Source: Candidatus Zixiibacteriota bacterium
Lineage (GTDB): Bacteria > Zixibacteria > MSB-5A5 > GN15 > FEB-12
NCBI GenBank assembly: GCA_041742355.1
Contig: JBGSIV010000066.1
Coordinates: 1 to 18,228, forward strand
Length of the DNA: 18,228 nt
Direction: 5' to 3'
The first letter of the stretch is position 1; every line of letters starts with the position of its first letter. The translations under genes and the position numbers were made by a program. The notes under the pieces were generated by a model that did not search any database, was not told the DNA's origin, and worked only from the letters and a program-made list of their open reading frames with translations. Positions 2,925-18,228 of this stretch are shown here, one piece after another.

Positions 2925-5900
2925 TTACTTGATCAGCAGCATCTTTCTCGAGAGCACGGCGCCCCCGGCGGTGAGGCGGTACAGGTACACGCCGTTGGCC
3001 AGCGTGGATCCGTCGAACGCAATAGCGTGGTTCCCCGGATCCATCACGCCGTCCCGGAGCGTGGTGACCAGTTGGCCAAGCATGTTGAACACTTCCAGCT
3101 TCACGTGCTGCCGGGAGGGCAGACTGAAGCGGATCGACGTAGTCGGGTTGAACGGATTGGGGTAATTCTGCGCGAGGCGCAATTCGGGGGATTCCGGCAC
3201 GAGGATCTCCTCCACCGGCAATTGCACTCCCTCGGCTGTCGGCAGGGTCCCGCTGTTGTGATTGTCATAGAGCCAGCGGGTCACATTGCGACCGTCGTCG
3301 TAGTTCGCTTCGAAATCCCACACCAGCAGCCGCTCGTCTTCGCTGATGAGCACGAGCTCGACCTTTCCGTCGTTGTCGATATCGTCCACCAGCGGTGCGT
3401 GGCGTGCCGACGTCACGGCGTAGTGCGCTGCCGGGGTCGCTTTCGGCCATCCGGGGACGGGCGTGGCCGTGTAGTCGAGAATGTGCAGCAATTCCGGCCC
3501 CCAGGTGGGAAGCAGGTGACCCGACCGGATAATAATCTCCGGGAATTCGTCGCCCACCAGGTTGGCTACTCCCGCCGTCCCCAAGGTGACACCGTTGATG
3601 TACAAGGCCTCGCCCGGCCGTCCGCGCGGCGAGTCCTTATAGGGAGTCCCATCGGCTCGGTATATGAAGAGGGAGCTCTTGTCGAATTCAAAGTAGGTCG
3701 ACAGGATTTCGGGGATACCGTCCAGATCAAGGTCGGCCACAACCGGGTAGGATGGCACCCACCCCATCCAGGACTCGTCAACCGGCACGACCCAGTCGGC
3801 GAAAGGCTGGTTCCCCTTTGTCCAAATCCAGATGTGCTCCCGGTCGAGTGTGTCGAGTCCCGCGACGATGACTTCGGGACGGCCGTCCCGATCGAGATCG
3901 GCGAGCGCCATTCCGCTGACGTTCGGAATTATTTCCACGGTTGGGGCCTCCAATCCGAACGCCGGCTCGCCGCTGGCCCCTTCGAACATCGCCAGCCCGG
4001 TGTACGGGAACGGCGAGCTGAACGTCGCCACCACCTCGATGCGACCGTCTCCGTCGAGATCCGCGGATGTCGCCAGCGGCGAGGTGCTTCCTCCGTTGTC
4101 TTTGGAATACCGTATCCGCGCGTCGAACTCCCCGAACAGCTCCCGCGAGTAGAAGTATCGGTCGCCGTTGAATCGGTACGCCAGGATCTGCCCGAGGTTG
4201 TTGACGATGATTATCGCCGAGTCAGGCACCGCGCCCGGCTGCGCCGACACCCGCAACCGCGCTATCGTCGGAACAGGATATGCATACTCATAGCCGATTC
4301 TCCCTGTGAAGCAGTACTGCGGCCATCCCGCCGCATAGGTGCCATCGTAGTTGAAGACGTGGATTCCCGAAGAATCGGTGATGATGATCTCGTCCTGGCC
4401 GTCGCGATCGACATCGTAGATCGACGGCGCACAGCGCACATCCCGCCCGCCCAGCACCGGGAACCCCGGCAGGCCCACGCCGTTATCGGCCCGGTACACC
4501 ATGAGTCCGGAGGTGGTGGCTGTGACCAGTTCCTTAATCCCATCCCGGTTGAGATCGGTGCACACCGCCGTCATGCCGCCGGCCCCGGGCATCTGTCGCG
4601 GCCACCCGTTGGCGAAACTCGACAGAATCAGAACTGAGGCCGAGTCAACCGCGACACTCCCGCCGAAATATCCATACAGGTAGATGCGAAACGCCCCCGT
4701 ATCCGACCCCGAAGCCGACCACGCGAAGAACAGCGAATCGAAATACTCCGCGGTCGAGCCATGCAACCGCGCCACAGTCCCCTGCGGGTTGCGGTACCGG
4801 ATCACCAGCGAGTCGTAGTCCGGCCCATACGCCGAGCCGTAGATCGGGATATTGTACTCCAGTTCCTGCCCATCCACCGGCGAGGTCAGTTCCAAATGGT
4901 TGGCCCGGCTGTAGGTGATGGTGATCACCGAGCTATGCCCGTTGGCATCGATCAGCCGAAACGAAACCAGTCCTTCGTCCGTCATGCTGTTGAAGACGGC
5001 GAGAATGGAATCGGCCGGCAGACCGTTGCCGGACGCCAGTTCCACCCACTGCGCCGGGACCGGGCTCAATCCCAGCGCGTACTCCAGTGTCCAGCTCCCA
5101 TTGTATCCGGCAATACTTCCCCCCTTGAGCGTCACCGCCCCCGTGTGCCGCGTGCGCTGCCCCGGCGAGGCGACGTACATCCCGCCGTTCTGCAGCAATC
5201 CGAGCGACGCATCAATATTCAGGTACCCCCACCCGCACAGCGTATCCGGTCCCGGCAGCGTGTCCCCCTGGTTCAGCGGATCGATCAGATCGGTGGCCCC
5301 GTGCAGGAGGACCTCCAGCATTTCGCTCAGGGAGAGATCCGGCCGAAACGACCATATGAGCGCCGCCGCCCCCACCACCATCGGCGCCGCCATCGAGGTG
5401 CCGTCCGAGAGGTAGTAGTATTCGTCGATGATGCGCACGAACGGTTCGCGGGTAGGATACGGCGCGTACATGTCCGTCCCCGTCGCCCGCAGCGAGAGGA
5501 TGTCTTCTCCCGGGGAGATGATGTCCAAGTGCGCCCCGTAGGTCGAGAAATACGTCTGAAAACCATCCGAATTCCCCGCCCCGACCACCAGTGTCGAATC
5601 AAGGTCGAACGCGGCCGGATAGAAACGCGTGTTGTCGCCGCTGTTCCCCGCCGCGATGCACACGAGCACTCCGTTCTTCCGCGCGAGATCCAGCGCCTCG
5701 CGGAGGACTTGCGACTGGAAGGGCGTCCCCCAGCTGATGTTAATCACCCGCGCGCCGTTGTTCACCGCGTAGACAATCGCTCCCGCGCTGACCGCAGTCG
5801 TTCCGTTCGGCATGATCTTCACCGGCATGATCTCGACCATCGGGGCGATCCCCACCACCCCGACGCCATCCGCGTTCGCCGCCACTATCCCCGCAATGTG

Positions 5901-6644
5901 CGTGCCGTGGCCGTCGGGATCCCGGGGGTCAGCATCCCCCTGCGGATCAAAGAAGTCCGATGAATCTCCCGAAATGTCGAATCCCACGGTATCGTCGACA
6001 TACCCGTTGTGATCATCATCCGCCCCGTTTCCCGGGATCTCATCGAGGTTCCGCCAGATTCTCCCGGCCAGTTCCGGATGTTCCGTATCCACCCCGGTAT
6101 CAAGCACTCCGACAATCACCTTGCCCGCCGTGTCAGTCCGCGGCGCAAGGTACTGCCCCACCAACCGGAGGTCTTTGTTCACGGTCCCGCTCTTGCTGAC
6201 GAGCAGGTCGTTCTCCTCGCCCGTCACGCGCTCGATGCCGTAGTATTCCTGCCCCGTATTTAGCAGGTGCCACTGGTGGGGGAAGAGCGGATCGGAGGGC
6301 AGATCGAACTGCTCAAGGTAGTAGTCCTCCTCCACCCACTCCGCATTCTCCCGGCCGAGCAGCCTGACCACATCGGCCACCGCCGCGGGGGTGTCGGCCC
6401 GGAAGACATAGATGCGGTCAAAGCCGTCGCTGGCAGCCTTGGCCGTCCCGGCCGTGGGCACCACCAGACGCATTTGCTCCTGCCCGCCCAGTGCCTGGCG
6501 GAGCACCGCCGCATCGGCATTTCGTGTCAGTTTGACGACAAAACGACCCGGGACCGGGCCGGTCCGAGGTTGTCCCTGCGCCATACCGGCCAGGATCAGG
6601 CCGAGGAACATCAATCCACTGAGAAACCGGCTGTAATTTTTCAT
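2925..6644 (-). CDS. S8 (subtilisin-family) serine peptidase with FG-GAP/VCBS repeats and C-terminal T9SS type A-like sorting domain
   Basis: Catalytic motifs VGVLDTGVD (Asp), GHGTHIAG (His), AAGNSG (oxyanion Asn), GTSMAAP (Ser codon 5394-5396). Seven DxxxDGxxE-type repeats. CTD LAQNYPNPFNPTT...RKMLLIK. Start moved from 6770 to ATG 6644 because a signal peptide begins there (MKNYSRFLSGLMFLGLILAGMAQG) and 6770 lies inside the predicted promoter. Confidence 0.95.
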   Translation of the reverse strand: MKNYSRFLSGLMFLGLILAGMAQGQPRTGPVPGRFVVKLTRNADAAVLRQALGGQEQMRLVVPTAGTAKAASDGFDRIYVFRADTPAAVADVVRLLGRENAEWVEEDYYLEQFDLPSDPLFPHQWHLLNTGQEYYGIERVTGEENDLLVSKSGTVNKDLRLVGQYLAPRTDTAGKVIVGVLDTGVDTEHPELAGRIWRNLDEIPGNGADDDHNGYVDDTVGFDISGDSSDFFDPQGDADPRDPDGHGTHIAGIVAANADGVGVVGIAPMVEIMPVKIMPNGTTAVSAGAIVYAVNNGARVINISWGTPFQSQVLREALDLARKNGVLVCIAAGNSGDNTRFYPAAFDLDSTLVVGAGNSDGFQTYFSTYGAHLDIISPGEDILSLRATGTDMYAPYPTREPFVRIIDEYYYLSDGTSMAAPMVVGAAALIWSFRPDLSLSEMLEVLLHGATDLIDPLNQGDTLPGPDTLCGWGYLNIDASLGLLQNGGMYVASPGQRTRHTGAVTLKGGSIAGYNGSWTLEYALGLSPVPAQWVELASGNGLPADSILAVFNSMTDEGLVSFRLIDANGHSSVITITYSRANHLELTSPVDGQELEYNIPIYGSAYGPDYDSLVIRYRNPQGTVARLHGSTAEYFDSLFFAWSASGSDTGAFRIYLYGYFGGSVAVDSASVLILSSFANGWPRQMPGAGGMTAVCTDLNRDGIKELVTATTSGLMVYRADNGVGLPGFPVLGGRDVRCAPSIYDVDRDGQDEIIITDSSGIHVFNYDGTYAAGWPQYCFTGRIGYEYAYPVPTIARLRVSAQPGAVPDSAIIIVNNLGQILAYRFNGDRYFYSRELFGEFDARIRYSKDNGGSTSPLATSADLDGDGRIEVVATFSSPFPYTGLAMFEGASGEPAFGLEAPTVEIIPNVSGMALADLDRDGRPEVIVAGLDTLDREHIWIWTKGNQPFADWVVPVDESWMGWVPSYPVVADLDLDGIPEILSTYFEFDKSSLFIYRADGTPYKDSPRGRPGEALYINGVTLGTAGVANLVGDEFPEIIIRSGHLLPTWGPELLHILDYTATPVPGWPKATPAAHYAVTSARHAPLVDDIDNDGKVELVLISEDERLLVWDFEANYDDGRNVTRWLYDNHNSGTLPTAEGVQLPVEEILVPESPELRLAQNYPNPFNPTTSIRFSLPSRQHVKLEVFNMLGQLVTTLRDGVMDPGNHAIAFDGSTLANGVYLYRLTAGGAVLSRKMLLIK

Positions 6645-6761
6645 GCGTAAGTCTCGTCCGTGCTGAGCTCCGCTGCCGCGGCCACTCGGTGTCTGCGTTC
6701 TTCCCCATAGACGCCCGGCCCAGCGATTATGTTCAACCCCCGGCCGCCCTGACCTGCGTAT

Positions 6762-6789
6762 AAGATACAATAATGCAAGGGGTTGTCAA
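6762..6789 (-). promoter_or_regulatory. Putative sigma70-type promoter for the S8 peptidase operon
   Basis: Minus strand TTGACA (6789-6784), 16-nt spacer, TATCTT (6767-6762), in an AT-rich patch of a GC-rich window. Confidence 0.6.
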
Positions 6790-6869
6790 ACTGGAAGCAC
6801 ATCCCGCCACTTTTTGCGCCCGGAACAGCGCCGTTGCCCCGCCGTGTTTCAGGAAGGCCAAGTCCCGCA

Positions 6870-6898
6870 TTGCTTCAACTCGAAGAACCGCGTATGTT
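6870..6898 (+). promoter_or_regulatory. Putative sigma70-type promoter for asnB
   Basis: TTGCTT (6870-6875), 17-nt spacer, TATGTT (6893-6898), about 80 bp upstream of the asnB ATG. Confidence 0.45.
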
Positions 6899-6976
6899 CG
6901 GGTACCGCCGGACCGGGTTAACTAAACGAAGACCCCTCCGATACTTGATATTGAGGCCGAAAGAGAAATAGAACGT

Positions 6977-8968
6977 ATGTGTGGAATAGCCGGATATTTT
7001 CAGTTAACCGAATCGAAGACCCCTGACCAGGCCCTGATCCGACGCATGGTCAACAGCTTGCGCCACCGTGGGCCGGACGAGTTCGGCGCCTACCTCGACG
7101 ACCGCTGCGTCCTGGGCCAGTCCCGCCTGTCGATTATCGACCTCTCCGGCGGCTCCCAGCCGATGTGCAACGAAGACGGCTCGCTGTGGATCACCTTTAA
7201 CGGCGAGATCTTCAACTACCTCGAACTGCGGGATGACCTGGCCGCCCGCGGCCACCTCTTCCGCACCCGGTGCGACACCGAGGTCATTATTCACGCGTTC
7301 GAGGAATGGGGCAAGGACTGCCTCCAGCGCTTCAACGGCCAGTTCGCCTTCGTCCTCTATAACCGGAACGACCGCTCGCTCTTTTTCGCGCGCGATCGCC
7401 TCGGTATCCGCCCGCTTTTCTATGCGCAGCACAACGGCCGCTTCTATTTCGGCTCCGAGATCAAGGCGATCTTCTGCGACCCGTCGGTCCCGCGCCGCCT
7501 CGACTTGAAGGGGCTCGATGAGATCTTCACCTGGTGGACCACCGCCCCGCCCCGCACGGCTTTCGAAGGCATCAACGAACTCGAGGCGGGCGCGTGCGGC
7601 ACCGTCCGCAACGGCCGCGTAGAAATCGAGCGCTGGTGGTCCATGACCTTTCCCGAGACGTTCAACCACCGTCGCTCGCTCGATTCATGGGCCGAAGAGC
7701 TCCACGCCCTGCTGGTCGACTCGGTCCGCCTCCGTTTGCGCGCCGATGTCCCGGTCGGCGCCTACCTTTCCGGCGGCCTCGACTCGTCGGCCACCACCGC
7801 CCTCATCAAGTATCACACCGACACGCCGGTCGAATCGTTTTCCATCGCTTTTCAGGATAAGGCCTACGACGAGTCCGAGTACCAGCAGCAGATGGCCCGC
7901 CACCTCGGCACCCACCACCATGTCGTCTCCTGCACATACCAGGACATCGCCTGCAATTTCCCCGCGGTCATCCGCCACACCGAGCGGCCCATTGTCCGCA
8001 CTGCCCCGACGCCCCTTTTCCTGCTGTCGCGGCTCGTGCGCGAGAACAATTTCAAGGTCGTTCTCACCGGTGAGGGCTCCGATGAAATCCTCGGCGGCTA
8101 CGATATTTTCAAGGAAACGATGATTCGGCACTTCTGGTCGCGCTCCCCCGAGTCCGCCTGGCGCCCCGCCCTGCTCAAACGCCTCTACCCCACGCTCCCG
8201 CTCTCGGGCGCCCGCGCCAAGTTCTACCTCGAGACATTCTACAAAGCCGGCCTCGCCGACACCGACGCGTTCCAGTACTCCCACCAGCCGCGGATCAACA
8301 CGACGACCAAGGTGAAGGACTTCTTCACCCCGGCCGTCCGCGATAGTGTCGGCGACTACGATTCGATCGGCGCCTTCGGCCGCGACCTCCCCGACACCTT
8401 CGATCGCTGGCACCATCTCTGCCGCGCCCAGTACATCGAGGCCCGGTCGCTGCTTTCCGGCTACCTGCTTTCGTCACAGGGGGACCGTGTCGGCATGGCC
8501 CATTCGGTCGAGGGCCGTTTCCCCTTCCTCGACTACCGCGTAGTTGAATTCGGCGCCACCATTCCGCCGTGGCACAAGCTTTTCGGCCTCAGAGAGAAAT
8601 TCGTGCTCAAGAAGGCTATGGCCCGCGAACTCCCCAGGGAGATCACCGCCCGCGTCAAACAGCCCTACATGGCCCCCGACTCCAACAGCTTTGTCCAGCC
8701 CGATTCTCCCGAGTGGATAGCCGAGGTGCTTTCCGAACGGGAGATCAGCCGGACCGGCCTGTTTGATCCGGCCGCCGTGCAGACCCTGCGCGAGAAGGCC
8801 ACCCGCCTCAAACACGCCCACCTCTCGTTCAAGGACAACATGTCGATGATCGGCATCCTGTCCACCCAGCTGCTCGTCCGCGAGTTTATCGATGACTTCC
8901 GGCCCGCCGACGATCCGGGCCGCGACCACTTCTCGGTCTGGCTCGATCAGAGCGCGGTCAGCGCCTGA
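6977..8968 (+). CDS. asnB: Asparagine synthase (glutamine-hydrolysing) family amidotransferase
   Basis: 663 aa. N-terminal Ntn nucleophile MCGIAG, HRGPD, RLSIID, FNGEIFNY, DTEV, RDRLGIRPLFY, PP-loop LSGGLDS, TGEGSDE, EGRFPFLD. Confidence 0.95.
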   Translation: MCGIAGYFQLTESKTPDQALIRRMVNSLRHRGPDEFGAYLDDRCVLGQSRLSIIDLSGGSQPMCNEDGSLWITFNGEIFNYLELRDDLAARGHLFRTRCDTEVIIHAFEEWGKDCLQRFNGQFAFVLYNRNDRSLFFARDRLGIRPLFYAQHNGRFYFGSEIKAIFCDPSVPRRLDLKGLDEIFTWWTTAPPRTAFEGINELEAGACGTVRNGRVEIERWWSMTFPETFNHRRSLDSWAEELHALLVDSVRLRLRADVPVGAYLSGGLDSSATTALIKYHTDTPVESFSIAFQDKAYDESEYQQQMARHLGTHHHVVSCTYQDIACNFPAVIRHTERPIVRTAPTPLFLLSRLVRENNFKVVLTGEGSDEILGGYDIFKETMIRHFWSRSPESAWRPALLKRLYPTLPLSGARAKFYLETFYKAGLADTDAFQYSHQPRINTTTKVKDFFTPAVRDSVGDYDSIGAFGRDLPDTFDRWHHLCRAQYIEARSLLSGYLLSSQGDRVGMAHSVEGRFPFLDYRVVEFGATIPPWHKLFGLREKFVLKKAMARELPREITARVKQPYMAPDSNSFVQPDSPEWIAEVLSEREISRTGLFDPAAVQTLREKATRLKHAHLSFKDNMSMIGILSTQLLVREFIDDFRPADDPGRDHFSVWLDQSAVSA

Positions 8969-8987
8969 CCCAAGGCCACAGAAACTT

Positions 8988-9019
8988 CAGGGGGCGACGT
9001 CCACCGACGACGCCCCCTG
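8988..9019. terminator. GC-rich hairpin between convergent asnB and adenylation genes (possible bidirectional terminator)
   Basis: CAGGGGGCG-A-CGTC-cacc-GACG-A-CGCCCCCTG: 9+4 bp stem with one A/A mismatch. No clear U-tract on either side, so intrinsic termination is uncertain. Confidence 0.55.
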
Positions 9020-9050
9020 CGCTTCTCCCCTGCCCTGACCGATCCTGAGG

Positions 9051-10664
9051 TTAGATATCCTGCTCCTTCTCTCTGGTCCGACGGGTCTTTTTCGATTTCG
9101 CCGCCACTCCCCCTGAATCCGGCACGTGCTGCCCCAGCACATCGTCAACCGTCCGGCGAATCTTCCCGGAGTCGGTCAGCGAGAGCGACGGCACGATCGC
9201 CACTGCCTGCGGAATCAGGGCCGGCTCCAGGTGCTGCCGGCAGTGCGCCAGCACTCCCTTCTCGTCGAGCGTCGAACCCTCCCGGAGCACGATCTCCGCC
9301 CGGATCGCCTGCCCGCACAGCTCGTCGGGCACGCCCACCACCCGCGCGTGCAGTACGTCCTCCAGCAGGTAGAGCGCGTCCTCGATTTCTTTCGGATGCA
9401 CCCGCTCCCCTCGGCACTTGATGATGTCGTCGGTGCGCGCGACAAAATAGAGATACCCCTCATCATCCATGCTGAACAGGTCTCCGGTGTGGAGCACCTG
9501 CTCCCACGGGTACTTCCCCGGCTTCAGGCGCCGCGCAGTCGCCTCCGGATCCCGCCAGTATCCCCGCATGACCGTCGCTCCCCGCACCACCAGTTCCCCG
9601 ACCTTCCCCCGCGGCACTTCCACTCCCTTGTCGTCGACGATCATCACCTCGAGATTCGGCATCGCGATGCCCACCGACGACGGTTTTTCATCCAGATGCT
9701 CCGGCGGCAGGTACGACACGCGCTTGCACTCGGTCAGCCCGTACATCGAGAAAATCCGCGCCTTCGGAAACGCCTTCTGCAGCCGGGGCACGTACGCCGG
9801 CGGCAGCGGCGCCGCCGTATTGGAGATGTACCGGACGGTCGGGAAGGTCTCCTTCTCCATCGCCTCGAGTTGCAGCAGGATCGCCATGATTGTCGGCACC
9901 AGCGGCAACCCCGTCACCTCGTGCTTCCGGATCAGCTCGATAATCTGGTAGGGAAAGGCGAAGGTCGGCTCCACCACCAGAGTCGCCCCTATCTGCATCG
10001 CCATGATCAGCTGGTACAGCCCGTAGTCGAAGGAGAAGGGCAGCATGTTGAGGATGACGTCGTCGCTCCGGTTCTCCAGGTAGCTCGTGATCGAGGTGGA
10101 GGCGGCCACCATGTTGCGGTGGGTCATCGTCACCCCCTTGGGGTCGCCCGTCGAACCCGAGGTATAGATGATCGCCGCCAGATCATCGTCGATCATCCGC
10201 GGCCCCTGAAACGGACGAAAACAGTCGAAAATCGCCGGGATTCCGGTCTCGGCCCGGTCGTAGTCGGTGTACAGGAGCACCGGCGGCTGGGCCAGTTCGG
10301 CTGCCGCCGACTCCACCAGCGGCTCGGCTTCTTTGGGCGTCACGACAAATCGTGGCTCGGCATTGGCGAAGATCTTCCTGAGCTTGGCCTCTCTCACCCC
10401 CGGATTGACCACCGAGAAGCACCCTCCGGCCTGCAAGACGCCGAAAATCGAGATTGCGGTTTCCGGCTGGTTGCCGGCGTATATGACCACCCGATCCCCC
10501 CGCTCCAGCCCGTTGCTCGATAGAAAGCCCGCCAGCGCCTGCGCCGCGTGGCCGAACTGCGCATACGATAACCGCTGGGTGCCGAAAATCAGGGCCGTCT
10601 TGTCCGGCGTCTTCTGGGTCGAGTTCCGAAGAAAATCATGTACCAGCATAAACGAATTCCCCAT
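9051..10664 (-). CDS. Stand-alone class I adenylate-forming (AMP-binding) enzyme, resembling exosortase-associated ligases and NRPS A domains
   Basis: 537 aa. Core motifs YTSGSTGDPKG (A3), PFSFDYG (A4), MYGLTE (A5), GELVVRG (A6), HTGDL (A7), RTDDIIKCRGERVHPKEIE (A8), LTDSGKI (A10). Alternative start ATG 10649 (MLVHDFL), preceded by GGGGAA. Confidence 0.92.
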   Translation of the reverse strand: MGNSFMLVHDFLRNSTQKTPDKTALIFGTQRLSYAQFGHAAQALAGFLSSNGLERGDRVVIYAGNQPETAISIFGVLQAGGCFSVVNPGVREAKLRKIFANAEPRFVVTPKEAEPLVESAAAELAQPPVLLYTDYDRAETGIPAIFDCFRPFQGPRMIDDDLAAIIYTSGSTGDPKGVTMTHRNMVAASTSITSYLENRSDDVILNMLPFSFDYGLYQLIMAMQIGATLVVEPTFAFPYQIIELIRKHEVTGLPLVPTIMAILLQLEAMEKETFPTVRYISNTAAPLPPAYVPRLQKAFPKARIFSMYGLTECKRVSYLPPEHLDEKPSSVGIAMPNLEVMIVDDKGVEVPRGKVGELVVRGATVMRGYWRDPEATARRLKPGKYPWEQVLHTGDLFSMDDEGYLYFVARTDDIIKCRGERVHPKEIEDALYLLEDVLHARVVGVPDELCGQAIRAEIVLREGSTLDEKGVLAHCRQHLEPALIPQAVAIVPSLSLTDSGKIRRTVDDVLGQHVPDSGGVAAKSKKTRRTREKEQDI

Positions 10665-10820
10665 ACCTTAACTGTTTCCTGACAGGCGCGGTCGCGCGCA
10701 AGCGGCCCGGGGAAAGGGTCAAGGCTGGGACTTGGGGAGAAGACTGGCTCGGTGAGACTTACGCTGGACATGACGCCCGTGAATATTACCGGAAGAGGTG
10801 AAGCGGCGTCGAGGTATACC

Positions 10821-10849
10821 ATAATAACAACCTCGCCCGAACCTGTCAA
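10821..10849 (-). promoter_or_regulatory. Near-consensus sigma70 promoter (extended -10) for the adenylation gene
   Basis: Minus strand TTGACA (10849-10844), 17-nt spacer ending in TGt, TATTAT (10826-10821). Confidence 0.7.
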
Positions 10850-10917
10850 CCCGATATGCTGTTTATCCGATAGAAAGAAGTGTCGATATACCTGTTGAGC
10901 GCCGATGGCGAATGCCG

Positions 10918-10946
10918 TTGACATCGGGACCGGGGATGCACATATT
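10918..10946 (+). promoter_or_regulatory. Putative sigma70 promoter for the carrier-protein gene
   Basis: TTGACA (10918-10923), 17-nt spacer, CATATT (10941-10946). Back-to-back with the promoter at 10821-10849. Confidence 0.55.
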
Positions 10947-11042
10947 CCCAACCCGTAGCCCCCGCCGCCGGCTGCTGCGCGAAGAACGCGTTTCTTCGCA
11001 CCGATGATTGTGTGTGGACTAGTTAAGCAGACAGGAGGACAC

Positions 11043-11288
11043 GTGAGCATTCGCCACGAACTGCGTTCGTTCATAAAAGACAACTTCATGATCGGGCGAA
11101 ATCCCGACGAGCTGACCGACAACGGTTCTCTCCTCGAACTGGGCATTATCGACTCCACCGGCGTGCTGGAGCTGGTCGGCTTCCTCGAGGAACGCTACGG
11201 CATTCAGGTCGAAGATAACGAACTCGTACCGGAGAACCTCGACTCCCTGGAAAATCTCGAACGTTACGTTTCAAGGAAGAACTGCTAG
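11043..11288 (+). CDS. Acyl/peptidyl carrier protein (phosphopantetheine-binding)
   Basis: GTG start at 11043 after a strong SD AGGAGG (11033-11038). 81 aa, acidic, LLELGIIDSTGVLELVGFLE with the attachment Ser at 11154-11156, and the typical ...ELVPENLDSLE tail. Confidence 0.93.
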   Translation: MSIRHELRSFIKDNFMIGRNPDELTDNGSLLELGIIDSTGVLELVGFLEERYGIQVEDNELVPENLDSLENLERYVSRKNC

Positions 11289-11330
11289 GTAAACGCCGGG
11301 CCGAGCGGGCAGCGCTCTCCCACTACCGCA

Positions 11331-11357
11331 TCAATCATTCGCCAATGCTGCCGATAC
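11331..11357 (+). promoter_or_regulatory. Sigma28 (FliA/SigD)-like promoter
   Basis: TCAA (11331-11334), 15 nt, GCCGATAC (11350-11357), versus the consensus TAAA-N15-GCCGATAA. ATG follows at 11365. Confidence 0.5.
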
Positions 11358-11364
11358 GGATATC

Positions 11365-12192
11365 ATGAAGCGGTTGTTCATCTCTCTGCTCCTCTCGGCC
11401 GGCCTGCCGGCGGCAGCCGTGCGCGCCCAGGAGCCGGTCTACCCGGACAACAGCAGCGTCACCTCCCTGTACCACCTCAGCGATTCGGTCCTCTCCGCCG
11501 CCGATACCCTGATTGTCACCCGCACCCTGACCAACGCCGAGTCTTTTCCCCTGACCGGCCTGTACTTCAGCGACAACCTCCCGGCCGGCCTGAACGTCGT
11601 CGGTTACACGGCGACGCTCAATGGCGCCCCGCTCGCTGTCGCTTTCGCCGGCCCGCTGGCCGGGAATGTCATCGGGGATTTCCGAACCTACCGCTGGGTG
11701 GTTGACTCCCCCGAACCGACGGACTACATCAGCCGGACGATCTACCCCGGCGACCAGGTCCGCCTGACCTACCGCATCGCCGCGTCCGATATCGGCGACT
11801 TCGTGCTGCCGCTCCACACCACCGTTTGCTTCGGCAACGGCGACGGTATCTTCGCCACGGGTCAGGGTTCCCTGCGGGTCACCATTGAATCCGATGATGA
11901 CGATCCTGACAACCTCCTCCCCGCCACGTACCTTGTCACGTCGGCGTACCCCAACCCGTTCAACGCCGAAGTAGCCATCTCGTACGAAGGCGCCAACGTA
12001 GCCGCCAACCCGATCGACTTCGAGGTGTTCAACCTCCTCGGCCAGGAACTGGCCCGCTACCGGGTCGTCGCCGAGGGCGACGCCGGCATAATCATGTGGA
12101 GCCCCGATGCCGCCACCGGCACCGGCGTCTTCCTCTACCGTCTCTCTTGTGCGGGAAGAACATCAACCGGCAAGCTGATGTTGCTGAAGTAG
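11365..12192 (+). CDS. Secreted protein with DUF11-like Ig domain and C-terminal T9SS type A-like sorting domain
   Basis: 275 aa. Signal peptide MKRLFISLLLSAGLPAAAVRA. DTLIVTRTLTN...LYFSDNLPAGL and IYPGDQVRLTYRI resemble the DUF11 pattern. Acidic linker ESDDDDPD. CTD SAYPNPFNAE...VFNLLGQ...GVFLYRL...GKLMLLK. Confidence 0.8.
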   Translation: MKRLFISLLLSAGLPAAAVRAQEPVYPDNSSVTSLYHLSDSVLSAADTLIVTRTLTNAESFPLTGLYFSDNLPAGLNVVGYTATLNGAPLAVAFAGPLAGNVIGDFRTYRWVVDSPEPTDYISRTIYPGDQVRLTYRIAASDIGDFVLPLHTTVCFGNGDGIFATGQGSLRVTIESDDDDPDNLLPATYLVTSAYPNPFNAEVAISYEGANVAANPIDFEVFNLLGQELARYRVVAEGDAGIIMWSPDAATGTGVFLYRLSCAGRTSTGKLMLLK

Positions 12193-12234
12193 CCGCCCCA
12201 AAATCTCCCGAGTAGCCCTTTACGAGTCCCCGTT

Positions 12235-12879
12235 TCAGAGCACGCCGAACGGCAACGCCGCCTGCACGTACGGATCGATCGCCTGCGCGAACCTCAGCGC
12301 CCGCGCCATCGCCTCATCCGTATTCCCCTCGTACACCGGCACCGTAATCCGCACCAGCGCCGCGTCGGTCGGGCGCATCGCCAGCGCATTCTGCAACAAA
12401 TCCAGTTTCAGCCCATATTCATCGCGCACCACCCGCGACCGCGTCTGGTACCAGTACAGCATCAGGCTCTCGTGCTCTCCGAACGCGATCCGCAGGCGGT
12501 TCACTGTCCGCGGCGGCGCTCCGGCCAGGCTCAATTCCACCGCCTCATGCGCCTCGATCTGCCATCCGCCCCCCGGCAGGCAGTGCCGCGGAGAATGAAT
12601 TCCCGCCCCGAACCGCTGCGACTCGAAGTACGCCACGAACAACTCGTTGGTCCCGCTGTCCGCCGAAAGGTACCGCTTCATGGTCGTCGAGGTCGCGTTG
12701 AGCACTTCATACGTCGTCTGGTCGAATAACTCCTCCCGCCCCGCATACCCTGCCACCTGCAGGGGGATCGACGCGAACTCCGCCTGGCGGTCCGGCTGGT
12801 TGCCCACGAACCGGAAATAGTTGCCGATCAGTCCACCGACGAGCAGGAGCGCCCCCGCAATAAGAATCCGGGTCTTCAT
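12235..12879 (-). CDS. epsI: EpsI family protein (exosortase-associated)
   Basis: 214 aa. N-terminal membrane anchor, IPLQVAGYAG, LFVAYFESQR, IHSPRHCLPGGGW, LYWYQ, TDAALVRI. Overlaps the exosortase stop (ATGA at 12879-12876). Confidence 0.9.
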   Translation of the reverse strand: MKTRILIAGALLLVGGLIGNYFRFVGNQPDRQAEFASIPLQVAGYAGREELFDQTTYEVLNATSTTMKRYLSADSGTNELFVAYFESQRFGAGIHSPRHCLPGGGWQIEAHEAVELSLAGAPPRTVNRLRIAFGEHESLMLYWYQTRSRVVRDEYGLKLDLLQNALAMRPTDAALVRITVPVYEGNTDEAMARALRFAQAIDPYVQAALPFGVL

Positions 12880-13784
12880 CGGCTCAACCTCCGCAATCCC
12901 ACCGCGAGAATCGACAGCAGCACGAACGCCACGACGAACACCGACAGCCCCAGCAAGGTGTGGTACGGCTCGGTGGTCGGATCGAGTTGCCCCACGTAGG
13001 CGATCACCGCCGTTAGGAACACCCGCACCACGTTGCCGATGACCGCTACCGGAATAGCCAGCAGGAAGATCGCCATTTTGCCCCAGAACTTCGGCTGCGA
13101 CATGTATCCGAAAATCGCCCCCATTGCCATCAAGGATATCAGCGACCGCATGCCCGAGCAGGCCTCGGCCACCTCCAGCGGACGGTCCGGCAGCACGATG
13201 ATATTCCCCTGCCGCAGCACCGACATCCCCAACCCCTGCATCATCTCCACCGAAACCTTGCTGGCCAGAAGCTGCATCGGAAAGGTCAGCGAGTAGTAGA
13301 TCACGCCGGGGATCGGGATCATGAACAGGAGGATGAAGAAGGCAAACCAGGTCCGGCGGATAAACTCCGCGCCGAGCAGGTACAGAGCCAGTCCGAACAG
13401 CACCATCACCATTGAGATCGCGATAATGAAGTACTCGACCCCCGCGTTGCCGAACACGAACAGCGTCATCCCGATCACCAGCAGGAGCAGCCCGAGGCGG
13501 CTTGGCCGGACCGCCAGCCCGGCCAGTTCGGCCCGCTTGTGCCAGAGGAAGTAGGCGGCGATCAGAGGCACAAGAAACCCGTGGGAGTAGTTCGAGTCAT
13601 CCCACCAGCGCTGCACCAGATCGACCAGCACCGGCGCAAACACCAGAAGGAAGAGCGCCCCGATGAGCCAGGTCGACTTCCGTTCGATCACCGCCGCTGC
13701 CGCTAGTGTGTTCTTCGATTGTGCGTCCATCGCTGCCACTTCGCCTTGTTCCGAGTTATCGCTGTCAGAGAGTACCGTCCGCAT
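12876..13784 (-). CDS. xrt: Exosortase (EpsH/exosortase-archaeosortase family transpeptidase)
   Basis: Polytopic membrane protein with YSHGFLVP, LLFMIPIP, and the catalytic triad motifs LEVAEACSGMRSL (Cys codon 13158-13160), NVVRV (Arg) and YHTLLG (His). Start is either 13784 or ATG 13730. Confidence 0.93.
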   Translation of the reverse strand: MRTVLSDSDNSEQGEVAAMDAQSKNTLAAAAVIERKSTWLIGALFLLVFAPVLVDLVQRWWDDSNYSHGFLVPLIAAYFLWHKRAELAGLAVRPSRLGLLLLVIGMTLFVFGNAGVEYFIIAISMVMVLFGLALYLLGAEFIRRTWFAFFILLFMIPIPGVIYYSLTFPMQLLASKVSVEMMQGLGMSVLRQGNIIVLPDRPLEVAEACSGMRSLISLMAMGAIFGYMSQPKFWGKMAIFLLAIPVAVIGNVVRVFLTAVIAYVGQLDPTTEPYHTLLGLSVFVVAFVLLSILAVGLRRLSR

Positions 13785-13885
13785 CCTCCCGCCGCAACAA
13801 CAAACGACGGCCGGTTGAAGGCTGCGCTGGTCCTCCGGCGCTGCCTCTTGGGCTTATAATCGGTAATCAGTTGGTAAAATCTGAG

Positions 13886-14917
13886 CTAGTGCCGAAGGGA
13901 CAGGACCTTGCGGCGAACCGCCAGCACTCCCCTCGCCAGTCCGCCGGGCAAGGCCGACAAGAACCGGTGAATCATCGGCACATCATGCACTTGAGCCAAT
14001 TGTGCCCGCGCCTCCGCCGTCCGCCCCTCCGATATCAATCCCGCCGCGACGACTACCCGATTCTCATCCAGCAGCCGCCGATACGCCTCCCCATGGATCT
14101 TCTGGAACTCCGCATCGGGTCCCCAGACCTCTTCGAGAATAAACACGCGCGATACCGCCCGCGCATAGGTATCGGCATCGGTCACCCGGTCGCCCGTATG
14201 CCCGTTCTGTATCGCCAAATCGCAATCCAAATAGGCCACCGGGCCGCACTGCGCCACCCGGGCGAAACAGGCCCACTCCTCGAAAATCTTGATCCCCTCC
14301 GTGAAGCGCAGCTCCTTCACCAGGCTCCGCCGCACCATCGCCGTTTGCGCCGCGACATAGCACTGATCCAGAAGGCACCGGTACAGATCGCCCGTGTACA
14401 CCCGCACATCGTCTTTCCCTTCCGGCCACTCGGCCATCTGCGACAGCAGCTTCGGTTCGCCCAGGCGATCCTCCCACGGCCGGCTGTCCCCCGTCCACCG
14501 CCGGATCCCGCCTTCGACCAGCCGTCCGTCGACAAACCGCAGCTTGAAATCGGAGAAACACAGGACTATGTCCGGTCGCGCCGCCATCAGACGGCACTGC
14601 GGATCGAGTTTGCCGGGCAGCCACTCGTCATCCGAATCGTTGAAAGCGATCAGGTCGTGCTTGGCCTCCGCAATCCCCTTATTGCGCGCCGCCGCCACCC
14701 CGGCATTCTTCTGCCAGACGTAGCGAACCGAGCTGCCACTGCGTTTCGCCCTTTCCGCGTACGGCTCGACTGCCGCCGCCGTATTATCCTTCGAGCCATC
14801 ATCGACAACGATGATTTCATCTCCCGGGCACACCTGTGGAAGCACCGACTCCAGCGCCCGCCCGATCATGTCCGCTCGGTTGTAGGTCGGAATGATAATC
14901 GATACCGCTTGCCGCAT
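13886..14917 (-). CDS. Glycosyltransferase family 2 (GT-A fold)
   Basis: 343 aa. VSIIIPTYNR, EIIVVDDGSKD, NAGVAAARNKGI, IAFNDSDDEWLPGKL (DxD). Helical C-terminal extension. Confidence 0.93.
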   Translation of the reverse strand: MRQAVSIIIPTYNRADMIGRALESVLPQVCPGDEIIVVDDGSKDNTAAAVEPYAERAKRSGSSVRYVWQKNAGVAAARNKGIAEAKHDLIAFNDSDDEWLPGKLDPQCRLMAARPDIVLCFSDFKLRFVDGRLVEGGIRRWTGDSRPWEDRLGEPKLLSQMAEWPEGKDDVRVYTGDLYRCLLDQCYVAAQTAMVRRSLVKELRFTEGIKIFEEWACFARVAQCGPVAYLDCDLAIQNGHTGDRVTDADTYARAVSRVFILEEVWGPDAEFQKIHGEAYRRLLDENRVVVAAGLISEGRTAEARAQLAQVHDVPMIHRFLSALPGGLARGVLAVRRKVLSLRH

Positions 14918-14993
14918 TCTTCACCTCGATGCCGGATTCACGTGCTGTGTGTGGTCCCTGCCGACCGGCCGGGGCCAATCACCCGTCTTCCTG

Positions 14994-16178
14994 CTATTTT
15001 TTCACGATCGAACGCACCGCGTGGAGCCCCGCCTTCAGGCCGGGTACACTCCGGAAGTGCTGCCGCGCCCGCTTCGGCCATACCCCGGCCACCACCGAAC
15101 GCACCCGGTTCGGATATACCCACAGATCGAAGTACGGCTCCTTCGCGGGGCGCCAGCTCGACAGCCACGTTCGATCTGTTACAAAATTCACGCTGTCCGT
15201 ATCCGGGTCGGCAAACGCCTTACCGAGCATTTCCCCGATCAGAAGGAAGCCTGGTGAGCACTCTGCGTACGCTTCGTCATAGCCGATCTTCCACAACACG
15301 AGCGTTCGCCCCGATCGGATCGCGAAATGCCCCGCCACATACCGATCGTCGACCCGCAGGAAGTGCCACTCCAGCACCCGCCGTGCGTGGAGCCGTGCGC
15401 ATACCGCCGAGTAAAATTCCCGCAGCCGCGGATCGGCGCCGACCGCTGATCCCTCGCGCCCCTTCCAGCCGGCTGCTTCCAGCACGGCGAAGCGGTCGAG
15501 GTACTCCGGATTCGCTTCCGCCCCGGTGTAAAACTCCGAGTGCACCGTCCCGAACTTCGCCAGCTTGCGGCCGTACTGCCGGAAGTGCTTCCGGAAGTGG
15601 CCGGAGCACTCGTTCATAAAGAACTCATCCCATGTCCCCTGCGTCGCCCGCACCGTCGCCAGCCCGCTCGGATTGACCACTGCCCGCGTCTCCTCCAGTG
15701 CTTCGACTTCTCTCAGCAGCTGAGACCTTTCCTCCACCCCCAGCAGCTCCACCCCGAACCACTCCGGTACCGTCTCGTCCAGCGCCTTCCGAAACGCCGT
15801 CACGACCCGCCGTTCCCACCCCGGCGTGATCACCGCGTCGATCGACCGGGTGTGCCCGTCCCCCGGCTGATGCAGCGAAACGACCATCTTCCCCAAAACC
15901 GGAATCCGGCGCTCCTCCAGCGTCAATACCCCCACCAGCCGTCCGTCGGCCACCGCCGCCAGGCACAACCAGGGGCGTTCGGTCGGCTGACGGAATTCCA
16001 GGTGGGCCGACAACCACGCGTGCGACAGCATCGGCAAACGCCCGTTGCTGAAAACCAGGTCGTCCCAATCCTCGGCGTACGGCTCCAGATCGGCCAGCGT
16101 CCGAAGAACTCGGACCTCCAGCGCCTTCGACCTGACAACTTCCTGCTTTACTATCGATCCGAATTGGTCCATGCTCAC
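14994..16178 (-). CDS. GNAT-fold acyltransferase (CelD/BcsL-like, Acetyltransf_6/FemAB-like), paralog 1
   Basis: 394 aa. W..LV...HAWL..., GRLVGVL, SGHFRKHFRQYGRKL, LEAAGWKG, LVLWKIGYDEAYAECSPGFLL. Start GTG 16178 or ATG 16172. Confidence 0.85.
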   Translation of the reverse strand: MSMDQFGSIVKQEVVRSKALEVRVLRTLADLEPYAEDWDDLVFSNGRLPMLSHAWLSAHLEFRQPTERPWLCLAAVADGRLVGVLTLEERRIPVLGKMVVSLHQPGDGHTRSIDAVITPGWERRVVTAFRKALDETVPEWFGVELLGVEERSQLLREVEALEETRAVVNPSGLATVRATQGTWDEFFMNECSGHFRKHFRQYGRKLAKFGTVHSEFYTGAEANPEYLDRFAVLEAAGWKGREGSAVGADPRLREFYSAVCARLHARRVLEWHFLRVDDRYVAGHFAIRSGRTLVLWKIGYDEAYAECSPGFLLIGEMLGKAFADPDTDSVNFVTDRTWLSSWRPAKEPYFDLWVYPNRVRSVVAGVWPKRARQHFRSVPGLKAGLHAVRSIVKK

Positions 16179-16268
16179 GACAAATCTGGGTTATTCTCCT
16201 GCCCCCAAGGCCTGCGACCCGGAAAGAAAGCGACTCTACCTTGCGGAGCCTTACTCATCGGGACCAGC

Positions 16269-16297
16269 AATATACCGGAAAATCGAAGATCTGTCCA
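16269..16297 (-). promoter_or_regulatory. Putative sigma70 promoter for GNAT paralog 1 and the GT2 gene
   Basis: Minus strand TGGACA (16297-16292), 17-nt spacer, TATATT (16274-16269), in the intergenic gap 16179-16329. Confidence 0.55.
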
Positions 16298-16329
16298 GTA
16301 CACGTTTTCGCGACCTGGCCGGCCCATGT

Positions 16330-17532
16330 CTACGATTCGGCCTTCCGGGCCGGGTTCGCTCCCCGCCTGCCCTCGCGAAGCGCGCGGACAGCCTGTTGCA
16401 GCCCCGGCACCCGCTTCAGCAGCTCCCGGCAGTGTTTCGGCCACGCCCCGGCAAGCAGCGGCCACGGGCGGTCGGGATACAAACCGACATCGTAGTACGG
16501 TCGCTTGTCCGGATGCCACGTATGATGCCAGTTCTTATCCGTAACAAAATTCACTTCGTCCGTCAGAGTATCGGCAAACGCCCGGGCCAACATGTGCTCG
16601 ATCAGCAACACTCCCGGCGAATAGTGCGCAAATGCCTCATCGTACCCGATCTTCCAGAGAAACAGCCTCCGGCCGCTGCGGATAGCGAGGTGCCCCGCCA
16701 CATCCGTCCGGCCCACTCGGAGAAAATGCCACTCGAGTTTTCCGCAAGAGTGAAGCCGCTCGGCGAGCAGCCGGTAGAATCTCCTCAGCCCGGCATCTTT
16801 CAGGATCGCCGACCCGGCCCGACCCTTCCAGCCTGCGGCTTCAATTGGCATGAACCGATCCAGGTACTCCGGCCGCGCCGCTTCTCCCGCCAAAAACTCC
16901 GAAACAATCTCGCCCACTCCGGCCATCTTACCGTGAGACCGCTTCAACTGGCGGTGAAAATTCGACGATAACCCTCTTTCATACTCATCCCAAGCGCCGA
17001 CTGTACGCACCACTGAGGCACATCCGTCCAAACTGGTGACAGCCGAACTCCGGGGCCAGTCGGACGAAACCAGCGGCGACTCTCGCTCAAGCAACGTAAA
17101 CTCCAACCCGAACCACCCCGGCGCCACCTCGTCCAACGCTTTCCTGAATTCTACCGCCACCGCCTCTTGGTATCCCGGCGCCGCCACCAGATCGATTGAA
17201 TGAGTGTGGCGATCCCTGGGTTGCCGCACAATGCTGACTGAACGCCCCCAAGCCGATGTCTGTTCGATCGACAACGGCAACACTCCCACCAGCCGCCCCG
17301 CCGCAATTGCCACAAGACACAACCAGGGACAGCCTTCCGGTCGGCAGCATTCCAGGTGCGCCGAGACCCATGCATGGGACATCGCGGGAAACCGACCGGC
17401 CCCCCCAAGCACCAAATCATTCCAGGGTTCGGCGAAGGGCTCCAGTTCGTGAACATCGCGAAGCACCCGAACCAAGACCGATCCGCTGCCGGCTTTCGCC
17501 GAGCGGGCATCGGCTGAAATCACGTTCTTCAT
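16330..17532 (-). CDS. GNAT-fold acyltransferase (CelD/BcsL-like, Acetyltransf_6/FemAB-like), paralog 2
   Basis: Colinear with paralog 1 (SHAWVSAHLE, PWLCL, FRKALDE, PEYLDRF, EAAGWKGR, LEWHFLRV, WKIGYDEA, VNFVTD). Start uncertain: ATG 17532 preferred over TTG 17553. Confidence 0.85.
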   Translation of the reverse strand: MKNVISADARSAKAGSGSVLVRVLRDVHELEPFAEPWNDLVLGGAGRFPAMSHAWVSAHLECCRPEGCPWLCLVAIAAGRLVGVLPLSIEQTSAWGRSVSIVRQPRDRHTHSIDLVAAPGYQEAVAVEFRKALDEVAPGWFGLEFTLLERESPLVSSDWPRSSAVTSLDGCASVVRTVGAWDEYERGLSSNFHRQLKRSHGKMAGVGEIVSEFLAGEAARPEYLDRFMPIEAAGWKGRAGSAILKDAGLRRFYRLLAERLHSCGKLEWHFLRVGRTDVAGHLAIRSGRRLFLWKIGYDEAFAHYSPGVLLIEHMLARAFADTLTDEVNFVTDKNWHHTWHPDKRPYYDVGLYPDRPWPLLAGAWPKHCRELLKRVPGLQQAVRALREGRRGANPARKAES

Positions 17533-17659
17533 ACATAGGTAAAATACATCCAAAATCCCGTTTGGGGTAGCCCAAACCAGGGATACGGCGATCTATCTCC
17601 CCACACTCCCCGACTCCACCCGACATGGGTCAACGTCACACGGGTTACCAACCCGCCCG

Positions 17660-18226
17660 CTATACCGTCTTAATATCCCCGGCTGGAAGCCGGCAAAAGA
17701 CATGAAGCCGCCGGCCTTGAAACGGCCATGACTTGTAGTAGCAGAAACTTACGCCCGCCACTGTGACACCGAAAGTCTCGCCGCAGATCCGGAATCCCAT
17801 TCGGAGGTGCGTTCGCAGCGACTCGGTGTTGAACGCGCTGATCGTGCCCAGAATGTTGCGGCAGCCGCGCGCATGGTTGTGCTCCAGCTGCTTCTTGAAG
17901 CAGATGAGGACAAACCCCTTCAGCCGTTCCTCCGGGGCCGTGTAGACATTGTACAGGAAGAACCCGTCGTCCCCCGTGTCGATCGTGATCCCCCCCGATG
18001 CGACAAAAAGCCGGCCGGTCGCCGACCAGCTCCACGCCACGACCCGATCCTCCTTGAGAACCAGCACGCAGTGGTCGCCCCGCTGCATGCGCTCGCGAAA
18101 TACCGCCTCCCGCACCCCCTCCCTCCTGACCCGGTCGATATCGTCAAGGCTCGCCCGTCGGATTTCGTAATTGCGGTAGTCGCGCGGCTGGAGTTTCAAC
18201 TCCTGCCCGCTGACCAGAAAGGTGTG
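17660..18226 (-). CDS. GNAT family N-acetyltransferase-like protein, 5' end probably outside window
   Basis: Frame is open upstream of the TTG at 18199 to the window edge (HTFLVSGQELKLQP...). GNAT motifs FLYNVYTAPEERLKG (acyl-CoA-binding motif A) and NTESLRTHLRMGF (motif B). Confidence 0.8.
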   Translation of the reverse strand, partial: HTFLVSGQELKLQPRDYRNYEIRRASLDDIDRVRREGVREAVFRERMQRGDHCVLVLKEDRVVAWSWSATGRLFVASGGITIDTGDDGFFLYNVYTAPEERLKGFVLICFKKQLEHNHARGCRNILGTISAFNTESLRTHLRMGFRICGETFGVTVAGVSFCYYKSWPFQGRRLHVFCRLPAGDIKTV

Positions 18227-18228
18227 GT

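Follow-up and report, generated by a model that had tools for sequence, protein, structure and literature searches.

The window analysed here is the whole of contig C66 (JBGSIV010000066.1, 18,228 nucleotides) of a Candidatus Zixiibacteriota genome of 4.37 Mb in 310 contigs. It raises the question of whether genes for an AsnB-type amidotransferase, a stand-alone adenylation enzyme, an acyl carrier protein (ACP), three GNATs, a GT2 glycosyltransferase, an exosortase and EpsI make up one undescribed surface-tailoring system, as a preliminary description of the sequence had proposed. Gene calls and NCBIfam/Pfam profile searches placed all of these genes at 6977–18226, and none of the 13 called window proteins matched a condensation, ketosynthase or thioesterase family, in agreement with what had been noted of the gene content of these 11 kb or so. 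It was found that three of the genes (AsnB, adenylation enzyme and ACP) belong to a four-gene cassette of the SMb20649–52 type, the fourth member of which, a NadE-like gene, is on contig C53. The enzyme–carrier–amidotransferase core of the proposal therefore holds, whereas the single exosortase/GNAT system does not. Genomes, contigs and loci are cited below by working numbers (G, C and L).

The named genes form four transcription blocks and not one operon, and the cassette genes are neither adjacent nor co-oriented: AsnB (+), the adenylation enzyme (−) and the ACP (+) are on C66, and the NadE-like gene is on C53. Such split forms are common in relatives. The cassette genes of the window and the signals between them are as follows.

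6977–8968, plus strand: AsnB-type glutamine amidotransferase, cassette gene 1 and sole gene of block 1, with an N-terminal MCGI Cys and an SGGLDS pyrophosphate-binding motif at residue 265.
8988–9019, no strand: G+C-rich hairpin, likely a two-way terminator (z −3.35 on the plus and −4.16 on the minus strand against 200 shuffles), without a U-run and unlisted by the terminator scan.
9051–10664, minus strand: stand-alone adenylation enzyme of the VinN-like type (A1), block 2, converging on AsnB across the hairpin; Asp213, Tyr214, Thr283, Lys314, Arg315 and catalytic Lys501.
10821–10849, minus strand: sigma70-like promoter upstream of the adenylation gene (TTGACA-17-TATTAT, 11/12, extended TG; consensus match only).
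10918–10946, plus strand: sigma70-like promoter upstream of the ACP gene (10/12; consensus match only).
11043–11288, plus strand: stand-alone carrier protein (ACP) of 81 residues, with a GTG start behind AGGAGG, PF00550, and Ser38 (11154–11156) in GIIDS; first gene of block 3, which diverges from the adenylation gene across the two sigma70-like sites.

Sigma70-like sites numbered 7 in 6700–18228, compared to 2.4 ± 1.6 in shuffles. The G+C content is 58–65% throughout the window relative to 60.4% for the genome, and this evenness rules out a recent foreign island.

All four cassette proteins are shared with the Sinorhizobium meliloti pSymB operon asnB-ACP-ligase-nadE (strain RCAM1115) at 44–50% identity: 47% for AsnB, 44% for ACP, 50% for the adenylation enzyme and 47% for the NadE-like protein. 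The S. meliloti ligase and the window enzyme have the same FDYG/SNTAA/TECKR pocket. The two arrangements differ in that the four genes here are spread over two contigs in three orientations, with an extra adenylation enzyme of another type, in the context of a Wzx/Wzy glycan locus and an exosortase. AsnB matched TIGR01536 at 516.6 bits (cut-off 267.1), with the hydroxyamidotransferase 7YLZ as its best PDB match, and the C53 NadE-like gene matched NF002048 (PRK00876-type NadE) at 453 bits (cut-off 313). Because a canonical NadE is encoded separately, on C198, the NadE-like gene of C53 is spare. According to the available text of PMC7232532, the S. meliloti operon has been in print since 2009 (Ramos-Vega et al.); its product is open in both organisms, and the idea of an undescribed pathway had to be given up to that extent.

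Of 60 relatives, 34 carry the adenylation enzyme, 36 the ACP, 33 the NadE-like gene and 34 an AsnB orthologue (threshold 60% or more); all four genes were present in 28, and none was found in 22. These relatives are kin and not independent, so the counts are a description and not statistics. The expected co-occurrence of AsnB, the adenylation enzyme and the ACP in other genomes was thus observed, and the co-location of the three is far beyond chance. As a module, the AsnB–enzyme–ACP–NadE set tracks together, whereas the exosortase and the GNATs, which had been counted in, are not tied to it: the constant partner of AsnB and enzyme orthologues in the relatives' loci is the NadE-like gene (NF002048), not an exosortase. 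A phylum sample of 201 genomes, each at least 85% complete and with this genome included, gave 119 with the NadE-like gene, 96 with AsnB and 115 with the enzyme; 111 of the 115 enzyme genomes also have the NadE-like gene, and 125 of the 201 (about 60%) have at least one of the three cassette enzymes. The NadE-like gene, overlooked in the preliminary description, is as tightly linked to the cassette as AsnB.

The first substrate is suggested by the adenylation enzyme, the best PDB match of which was VinN (3WVN; E 2.9e-84). The VinN residues Asp230, Lys330 and Arg331, presented in the accessible parts of two papers as its beta-amino-acid determinants (PMC11253843, PMC11284099), align ungapped to Asp213, Lys314 and Arg315, and the shortened VinN loop (beta13–beta14) is kept, being one residue shorter than in the adenylation enzyme type found on C53. 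In the same accounts, a stand-alone carrier is loaded by VinN with 3-methylaspartate and, to a weak extent, with L-Asp, and Asp is the substrate of FlvN (PMC11253843, PMC11284099). The window enzyme is accordingly predicted to load aspartate on the ACP via the beta-carboxyl; with a VinN-like pocket, the product would be a beta-aspartyl-ACP whose alpha-carboxyl is left free and could readily serve AsnB as substrate. The VinN–VinL pair of vicenistatin biosynthesis likewise combines a stand-alone adenylation enzyme with a stand-alone carrier (PMC11253843, PMC11284099), but neither the window nor the loci read contained a polyketide synthase, pyridoxal-phosphate-dependent decarboxylase, VinM or VinK, and two ATP-pyrophosphatase ligases are found instead.

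Type II peptidyl carriers (2MY5, PltL, PigG) are the nearest solved structures to the ACP, which is the only one of its type found in the genome. Its best NCBIfam match was the OlsHI ornithine-lipid carrier NF052616 at 65.2 bits with a cut-off of 130, which rules out membership of that family. The S. meliloti ligase SMb20650 is described as not complementing fadD mutants in the available text of PMC7232532. Together with the VinN pocket and the peptidyl-carrier-like ACP, this supports the earlier view, in that the adenylation enzyme resembles a loader of amino acids onto a carrier protein and not a fatty acyl-CoA ligase.

A second adenylation enzyme lies directly behind the NadE-like gene on C53 (L083, 3998–6868). 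It lacks the amino-binding Asp and has the longer loop (YYIYGNS/TQAGG/TEASPR), and its type is the majority cassette partner in the lineage. In a quick tree, the adenylation enzymes fall in two well-supported clades, and both types are present in this genome and in G001. A search of genome contigs for loci related to the adenylation enzyme returned only 6 distant ones (28–36%), which were left unused. In G004 and G020 (L006, L043), A1-clade enzymes without the pocket Asp and Lys (FGYG, TECAR/TECIR) have a third predicted specificity.

The chemistry that may follow loading was approached through the amide ligases. In nearly every case across the 201 genomes, two ATP-pyrophosphatase amide ligases go with the cassette, in the pairs AsnB and NadE-alpha, NadE-beta and NadE-alpha, or NadE-beta and WbuX-like. 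All four close relatives that have the enzyme, the ACP and a NadE-like gene without an AsnB orthologue were found to have a second NadE-like gene, which is at AsnB's place in three of the four. An AsnB orthologue was not found in 29 of the 119 NadE-like-positive genomes, and 25 of these 29 are explained by a substitute: NadE-beta in 15, another second copy in G058 and an adjacent WbuX-like gene in 9. In total, 16 genomes have NadE-beta, and 15 of these are AsnB-less. A FastTree tree of the NadE-like proteins separated an alpha group (support 0.91), which includes the S. meliloti and C53 proteins, from a beta group (support 0.88), in which the second copies and those NadE-like proteins that are paired with a WbuX-like gene are found. 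The WbuX-like proteins are so called because TIGR03573 was their best family, at 168–176 bits and below the cut-off of 203.2, in all three that were scanned.

WbuX/PseA enzymes convert acetamido to acetamidino groups. By parsimony, the pair pattern makes NadE-beta equal to AsnB (acid to amide) and NadE-alpha equal to the WbuX-like enzyme, an inference drawn from gene patterns in which independent events are few. This two-ligase rule suggests that nitrogen is added twice in succession to one carrier-bound diacid. What is new here is the two-ligase interchange and the swappable loader; the four-gene core itself has been known since 2009. Open-access literature searches returned no earlier account of the AsnB/NadE/WbuX interchange, and nothing relevant to the cassette (asnB/nadE/ACP, exosortase, dehydroalanine, tethered amidation); a link to dehydroalanine was given up for want of support.

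Several gene orders of the interchange were recorded. The order NadE-ACP-enzyme-NadE, with the second NadE clade at AsnB's place, was seen in G057, G039, G053, G124, G151, G198 and G186, the last of which has its adenylation gene in three pieces. The order ACP-A1-NadE-beta-WbuX-like was seen in G116, G094, G175, G139, G122 and G161; in G175 and G139, two genes follow whose products resemble hydrolases 1 and 2 of the exosortase-A-associated kind (TIGR03100/03101, scores below cut-off), and these are candidates for the transfer step. A separate pair of an adenylation enzyme and a WbuX-like gene is present beside an AsnB/NadE-alpha cassette in the same genome in G109 (C7), G114 (C1) and G099 (C7), and G125 has three cassette copies of different types. 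A 1005-residue NadE frame in G097 was considered as a NadE–AsnB fusion and ruled out, the two being separate genes. Three genes at 17328–20000 of L088 (G002) adjoin the NadE-like block; by their motifs, they are putatively cas2, cas1 and the end of cas9.

A glycan setting for the cassette had also been anticipated, and it is supported, in the form of a Wzx/Wzy glycan locus. Genes for Wzx, Wzy, Wzz, GT4, deacetylases and Ugd recur around the cassette in relatives, and about 35 kb of G001 contain AsnB, two ACPs, both adenylation enzymes, LbH, SGNH-like, GNAT, DegT-like, GT2, Wzx, Wzy, GT4 and NadE-like genes. In G002, the window's ACP-to-GNAT order continues into homologues of C115 and C53 genes, with a 58% orthologue of the GT2 gene (13886–14917) at the same place. 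C66, C115 and C53 are thus likely pieces of one fragmented Wzx/Wzy glycan locus, as judged by synteny only. C115 (L084), the probable continuation of the window locus, carries three PaaK-like ligases, Wzx, Wzy, an LbH acyltransferase, an SGNH-like gene, a deacetylase and two more GNATs, and its PaaK-like ligases may be alternative acyl-CoA donors for the GNATs.

We propose, with a probability of roughly 45%, that the cassette forms a beta-aspartyl-ACP that is amidated by AsnB, modified a second time by the NadE-like enzyme and transferred to a glycan by some transferase. Judging from its pocket, the adenylation enzyme would adenylate the beta-carboxyl of L-aspartate and load it on the Ser38-phosphopantetheine, after which AsnB, with glutamine and ATP, would amidate the free alpha-carboxyl. 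If the two-ligase rule holds, the NadE-like enzyme would add nitrogen again, in an ATP-dependent step on the same tethered group. The group would then be moved to an amino or hydroxyl of the glycan, with the LbH and SGNH-like neighbours on C115/C53 as candidate transferases. The same carrier is likely supplied with another diacid, a non-amino one, by the second adenylation enzyme, that of C53. The PF13480 GNATs are likely parallel FemX/VimA-like aminoacyltransferases acting on amino sugars, and the exosortase would process PEP-CTERM proteins; both would be neighbours and not obligate parts.

There are precedents for parts of this scheme. AsnB homologues (OxyD and relatives) amidate carrier-bound substrates, and the DltA/DltC system for D-alanylation uses an adenylation enzyme and a carrier to decorate a surface polymer. 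In comparison, DltC is a weak match to the ACP, the pocket here predicts a diacid and not alanine, and the tethered group would be further modified; no MBOAT (DltB) or DltD was present among the called genes of the window, the rest of the genome not having been searched for them. N-malyl substituents linked via C4 are described on the amino sugars of bacterial O-polysaccharides in the accessible part of PMC3210612, which shows that amino sugars do carry diacid tags in nature. No link from an N-malyl-type structure to the cassette was found, and none of the papers listed by a literature search on aspart-4-yl glycans had that term.

The proposal matters because about 60% of the sampled phylum genomes carry the cassette, as do culturable rhizobia. 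The VinN-like pocket names the first substrate to try, the Asp-less type indicates that one substrate can be swapped for another, and the way in which AsnB, the second NadE clade and WbuX-like genes stand in for each other indicates which reactions are equivalent. Many "NAD synthase" annotations are probably wrong. A much broader reading, which we regard as a long shot, is that of a general undescribed assembly line for nitrogen-rich acyl tags. Its two ATP-dependent steps on the carrier protein would run from acid to amide (AsnB/NadE-beta) and from amide to amidine (NadE-alpha/WbuX-like) on a swappable diacid (aspartate or non-amino) selected by the adenylation enzyme. The tag would be handed to a glycan of the surface, and in some lineages this glycan would be the anchor for exosortase-sorted proteins. 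If this were true, hundreds of "NAD synthase" genes would encode carrier-dependent amide or amidine synthases.

A number of observations weigh against the proposed beta-aspartyl route. The chemistry is predicted from sequence and gene patterns. VinN's bulky Phe231 and its Ser299, which face the loop, are replaced by Tyr214 and Thr283 here, although these changes are conservative. The VinN-like clade is present in only 24 of the 201 genomes, most relatives using the Asp-less type with the one-residue-longer loop, and G002 (same genus, 98% complete) has a 78%-identical ACP in the same place with only an Asp-less enzyme. Therefore, aspartate cannot be the universal substrate; the retention of the G002 ACP with the other enzyme type also implies that the carrier accepts interchangeable loaders. 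Exceptions to the ligase interchange are G150, which has both AsnB and NadE-beta, and the 4 of the 29 AsnB-less genomes in which no substitute was found (G136, G173, G207 and G208; 240–650 contigs). The window AsnB is the only full-length AsnB found in the genome and could also make free asparagine. In S. meliloti RCAM1115, the neighbours of the operon are genes for sugar ABC, aldo-keto reductase and minCDE, with no glycan genes within 8 kb, and the 2009 study of SMb20651 reportedly found acylation of this ACP with C12/C18 fatty acids. No contig-end overlap was found between C66, C115 and C53. In the available text of PMC7232532, smb20650 and the ACP gene smb20651 are described as co-transcribed, and their co-expression gave acylated ACP in vivo.

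These last points bear on an alternative that we consider unlikely, namely that the product of the cassette is a modified lipid or a small molecule in free form (an amino-acid amide or aminolipid), the glycan context reflecting envelope gene clustering only. Such a product would fit the non-glycan context in S. meliloti, the in vivo acylation of SMb20651 (PMC7232532), the OlsHI carrier as best NCBIfam match of the ACP (65 bits, cut-off 130) and the single, scattered occurrence of cassette genes in many relatives, in which AsnB is beside an S8 peptidase and the NadE-like gene beside an M24 peptidase. However, SMb20650 is described as not complementing fadD phenotypes (PMC7232532), no lipid-type acyltransferase is conserved beside the cassette in the loci read, and Wzz/Wzx/Wzy/GT neighbours are its most frequent context.

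The alternative of a single system concerns the remaining features of the window, of which the first belongs to block 3 and the others form block 4.

11365–12192, plus strand: secreted DUF11-repeat protein with a T9SS-like (type IX secretion system) C-terminal domain, TIGR01451 and TIGR04183 over cut-off.
12235–12879, minus strand: EpsI family protein, a neighbour and not a cassette gene (TIGR02914, 113.7 bits, cut-off 42.8).
12876–13784, minus strand: exosortase (TIGR02602, 203 bits, cut-off 105.55).
13886–14917, minus strand: GT2 glycosyltransferase of the surrounding glycan locus (PF00535).
14994–16178, minus strand: PF13480 double-GNAT protein of 394 residues, with a predicted FemX/MprF fold (AlphaFold model).
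16330–17553, minus strand: second PF13480 GNAT, a paralogue about 50% identical, with its likely start at ATG 17532.
17660–18226, minus strand: small single-domain GNAT, its 5′ end lost at the contig end (PF00583, 19.9 bits, cut-off 20.7, E 0.0009).

The DUF11 protein is unrelated to the other named genes and interrupts the set, and the ACP-DUF11 order is kept in G001, G002 and G010.

In the single system, the GNATs would move an acyl group from the ACP to a GT2-built glycan, which the exosortase would couple to PEP-CTERM proteins. The link to the exosortase does recur: G110 has NadE-ACP-AsnB-A1 and then EpsI-exosortase-GNAT-GT2, G002 keeps ACP-DUF11-EpsI-exosortase-GT2-GNAT-GNAT, and a cassette gene was no more than 12 kb from the exosortase in 1 of 38 cassette-bearing close relatives (G002) and 5 of 80 further genomes (G099, G110, G114, G135 and G145), with a distance of 23–40 kb in 7 more. 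The 80 were searched out of 91 eligible, by comparing place tables by eye, and most are drafts, in which different contigs are no proof of distance. The GNATs are basic (pI 8.6–8.9) and the ACP is acidic (pI 4.4), but a basic surface is also expected of the tRNA-dependent enzymes that are nearest to the GNAT fold. Furthermore, strong exosortase matches were found in 55 and PF13480 in 59 of the 60 relatives, and among the 22 in which no cassette gene was found, 19 have an exosortase and all 22 have PF13480. In G018 (95% complete), three homologues of the window's GNATs accompany an exosortase, Wzx and Wzy, together with deacetylases and a PaaK-like ligase, and no cassette gene was found. The cassette–exosortase link is therefore recurrent but not obligatory, the single system is decidedly unlikely, and, with an exosortase-linked system not established, the window itself is not a new pathway.

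The exosortase is a single copy in the genome, and we take Cys209/Arg254/His275 to be its catalytic triad. Four PEP-CTERM matches (TIGR02595), on C282, C164, C120 and C110, are its likely substrates. Exosortase-associated models gave a divided result: the generic exosortase and EpsI models were matched over cut-off, whereas the subtype scores were under theirs (XrtA 190 vs. 208, XrtW 219.6 vs. 425 and XrtD 195.9 vs. 400, the XrtW and XrtD models including a fused EpsI). The XrtA/PEP-CTERM set (TIGR03108, TIGR03098, TIGR03019) has the same enzyme classes near an exosortase, but AsnB scored 482.6 with TIGR03108 (cut-off 816.9), and the ligases scored 436.4 (window) and 389.5 (C53) with TIGR03098 (cut-off 592.35). 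With AsnB, ligase and exosortase all under the cut-offs, membership of the XrtA/PEP-CTERM system was ruled out. TIGR03019 was unlisted for the three GNATs in the NCBIfam search (E up to 0.01; presence of this model in the library was unconfirmed). AsnB and FemAB-related genes are reported in a PEP-CTERM polysaccharide cluster in the accessible part of PMC3684757.

The 394-residue GNAT matched nothing in the PDB by sequence or profile. Its AlphaFold model (mean predicted local distance difference test score 94.7, 140-row alignment) was closest to FemX (6SNR; Z 21.9, root-mean-square deviation 4.5, 306 aligned; Foldseek E 1.3e-12), with Sbb17 (Z 19.7), MprF (17–18) and FemA also ahead of CoA-type tandem GNATs (12–14). 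The double-GNAT fold is thus common to FemX, FemA, Sbb17 and MprF (Z 17–22), at only 9–14% identity. The protein is likely an aminoacyltransferase, and the modelled fold points to an aminoacyl-tRNA donor; with a fold of tRNA-using enzymes, the GNATs would need no ACP, although the fold is also compatible with an ACP donor. Further PF13480 paralogues are on C115 and C55, and no homologue of the small GNAT was found in the syntenic G002 locus.

The Wbp/Vim pathway of Porphyromonas gingivalis (VimA, VimE, WbpS), in which a FemAB-related transferase, a deacetylase and an AsnB homologue shape an amino sugar beside a sorting system, is the nearest tested precedent and bears on two of the alternatives. 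According to the available text of PMC7468200, VimA sets the amino acid and the AsnB homologue makes the uronamide of the linking sugar, so that an amino-acid-bearing linking sugar is made for sorting, and the authors speculate that the same applies to exosortase loci. This would suit the single system, but the pathway as described there is without a carrier protein or adenylation enzyme; here, deacetylases and GNATs are on C115, and the likeness to VimA is by description only.

The same pathway lends itself to a further alternative, in which AsnB acts on a nucleotide-sugar uronic acid, as WbpS forms a uronamide in P. gingivalis (PMC7468200), the NadE-like or WbuX-like enzyme acts on an acetamido sugar, and the enzyme–ACP pair does no more than provide an aminoacyl or diacyl group, itself left unmodified. 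The cassette is flanked by Ugd genes in G016, G015, G051, G057 and others, and WbuX-type enzymes are sugar amidotransferases by family name. Nevertheless, other AsnB-like genes in glycan loci are divergent and variable, whereas the cassette AsnB is 59–84% conserved in most carriers and tracks the ACP, and the cassette is also found in a locus without glycan genes (S. meliloti). We therefore hold this alternative to be improbable. It is hardly credible that housekeeping genes for asparagine and NAD synthesis and an acyl-CoA ligase came together by accident: NCBIfam does name AsnB asparagine synthase and the NadE-like protein NAD(+) synthase over cut-off, and AsnB is single in the genome, but the genes are present or absent as a set, the canonical NadE is separate, and a second NadE-like gene can occupy the very position of AsnB.

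Other neighbours were also noted. In the lineage, the usual neighbours of exosortase/EpsI are genes like those for a UbiA-type decaprenyl-phosphate phosphoribosyltransferase and a lipid kinase (L111, L112, L114, L117, L120, L122, L126 and L127; families confirmed for G001 only), which hint at a lipid acceptor of the exosortase. On the AsnB side of the window, 795–6770 of the minus strand encodes a subtilase S8/FG-GAP protein and a 709-residue partner, both with T9SS-like tails. The S8 peptidase and partner adjoin a cassette gene in 11 relatives (G001, G002, G006, G011, G020, G021, G026, G027, G029, G034 and G036; the partner was not seen on the short G006 contig), and the pair is a steadier neighbour of the cassette than the exosortase. 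In this genome (G000), a T9SS-like tail of the PNPFN type closes 51 reading frames and a PEP-CTERM tail 4, so that two C-terminal sorting systems appear side by side.

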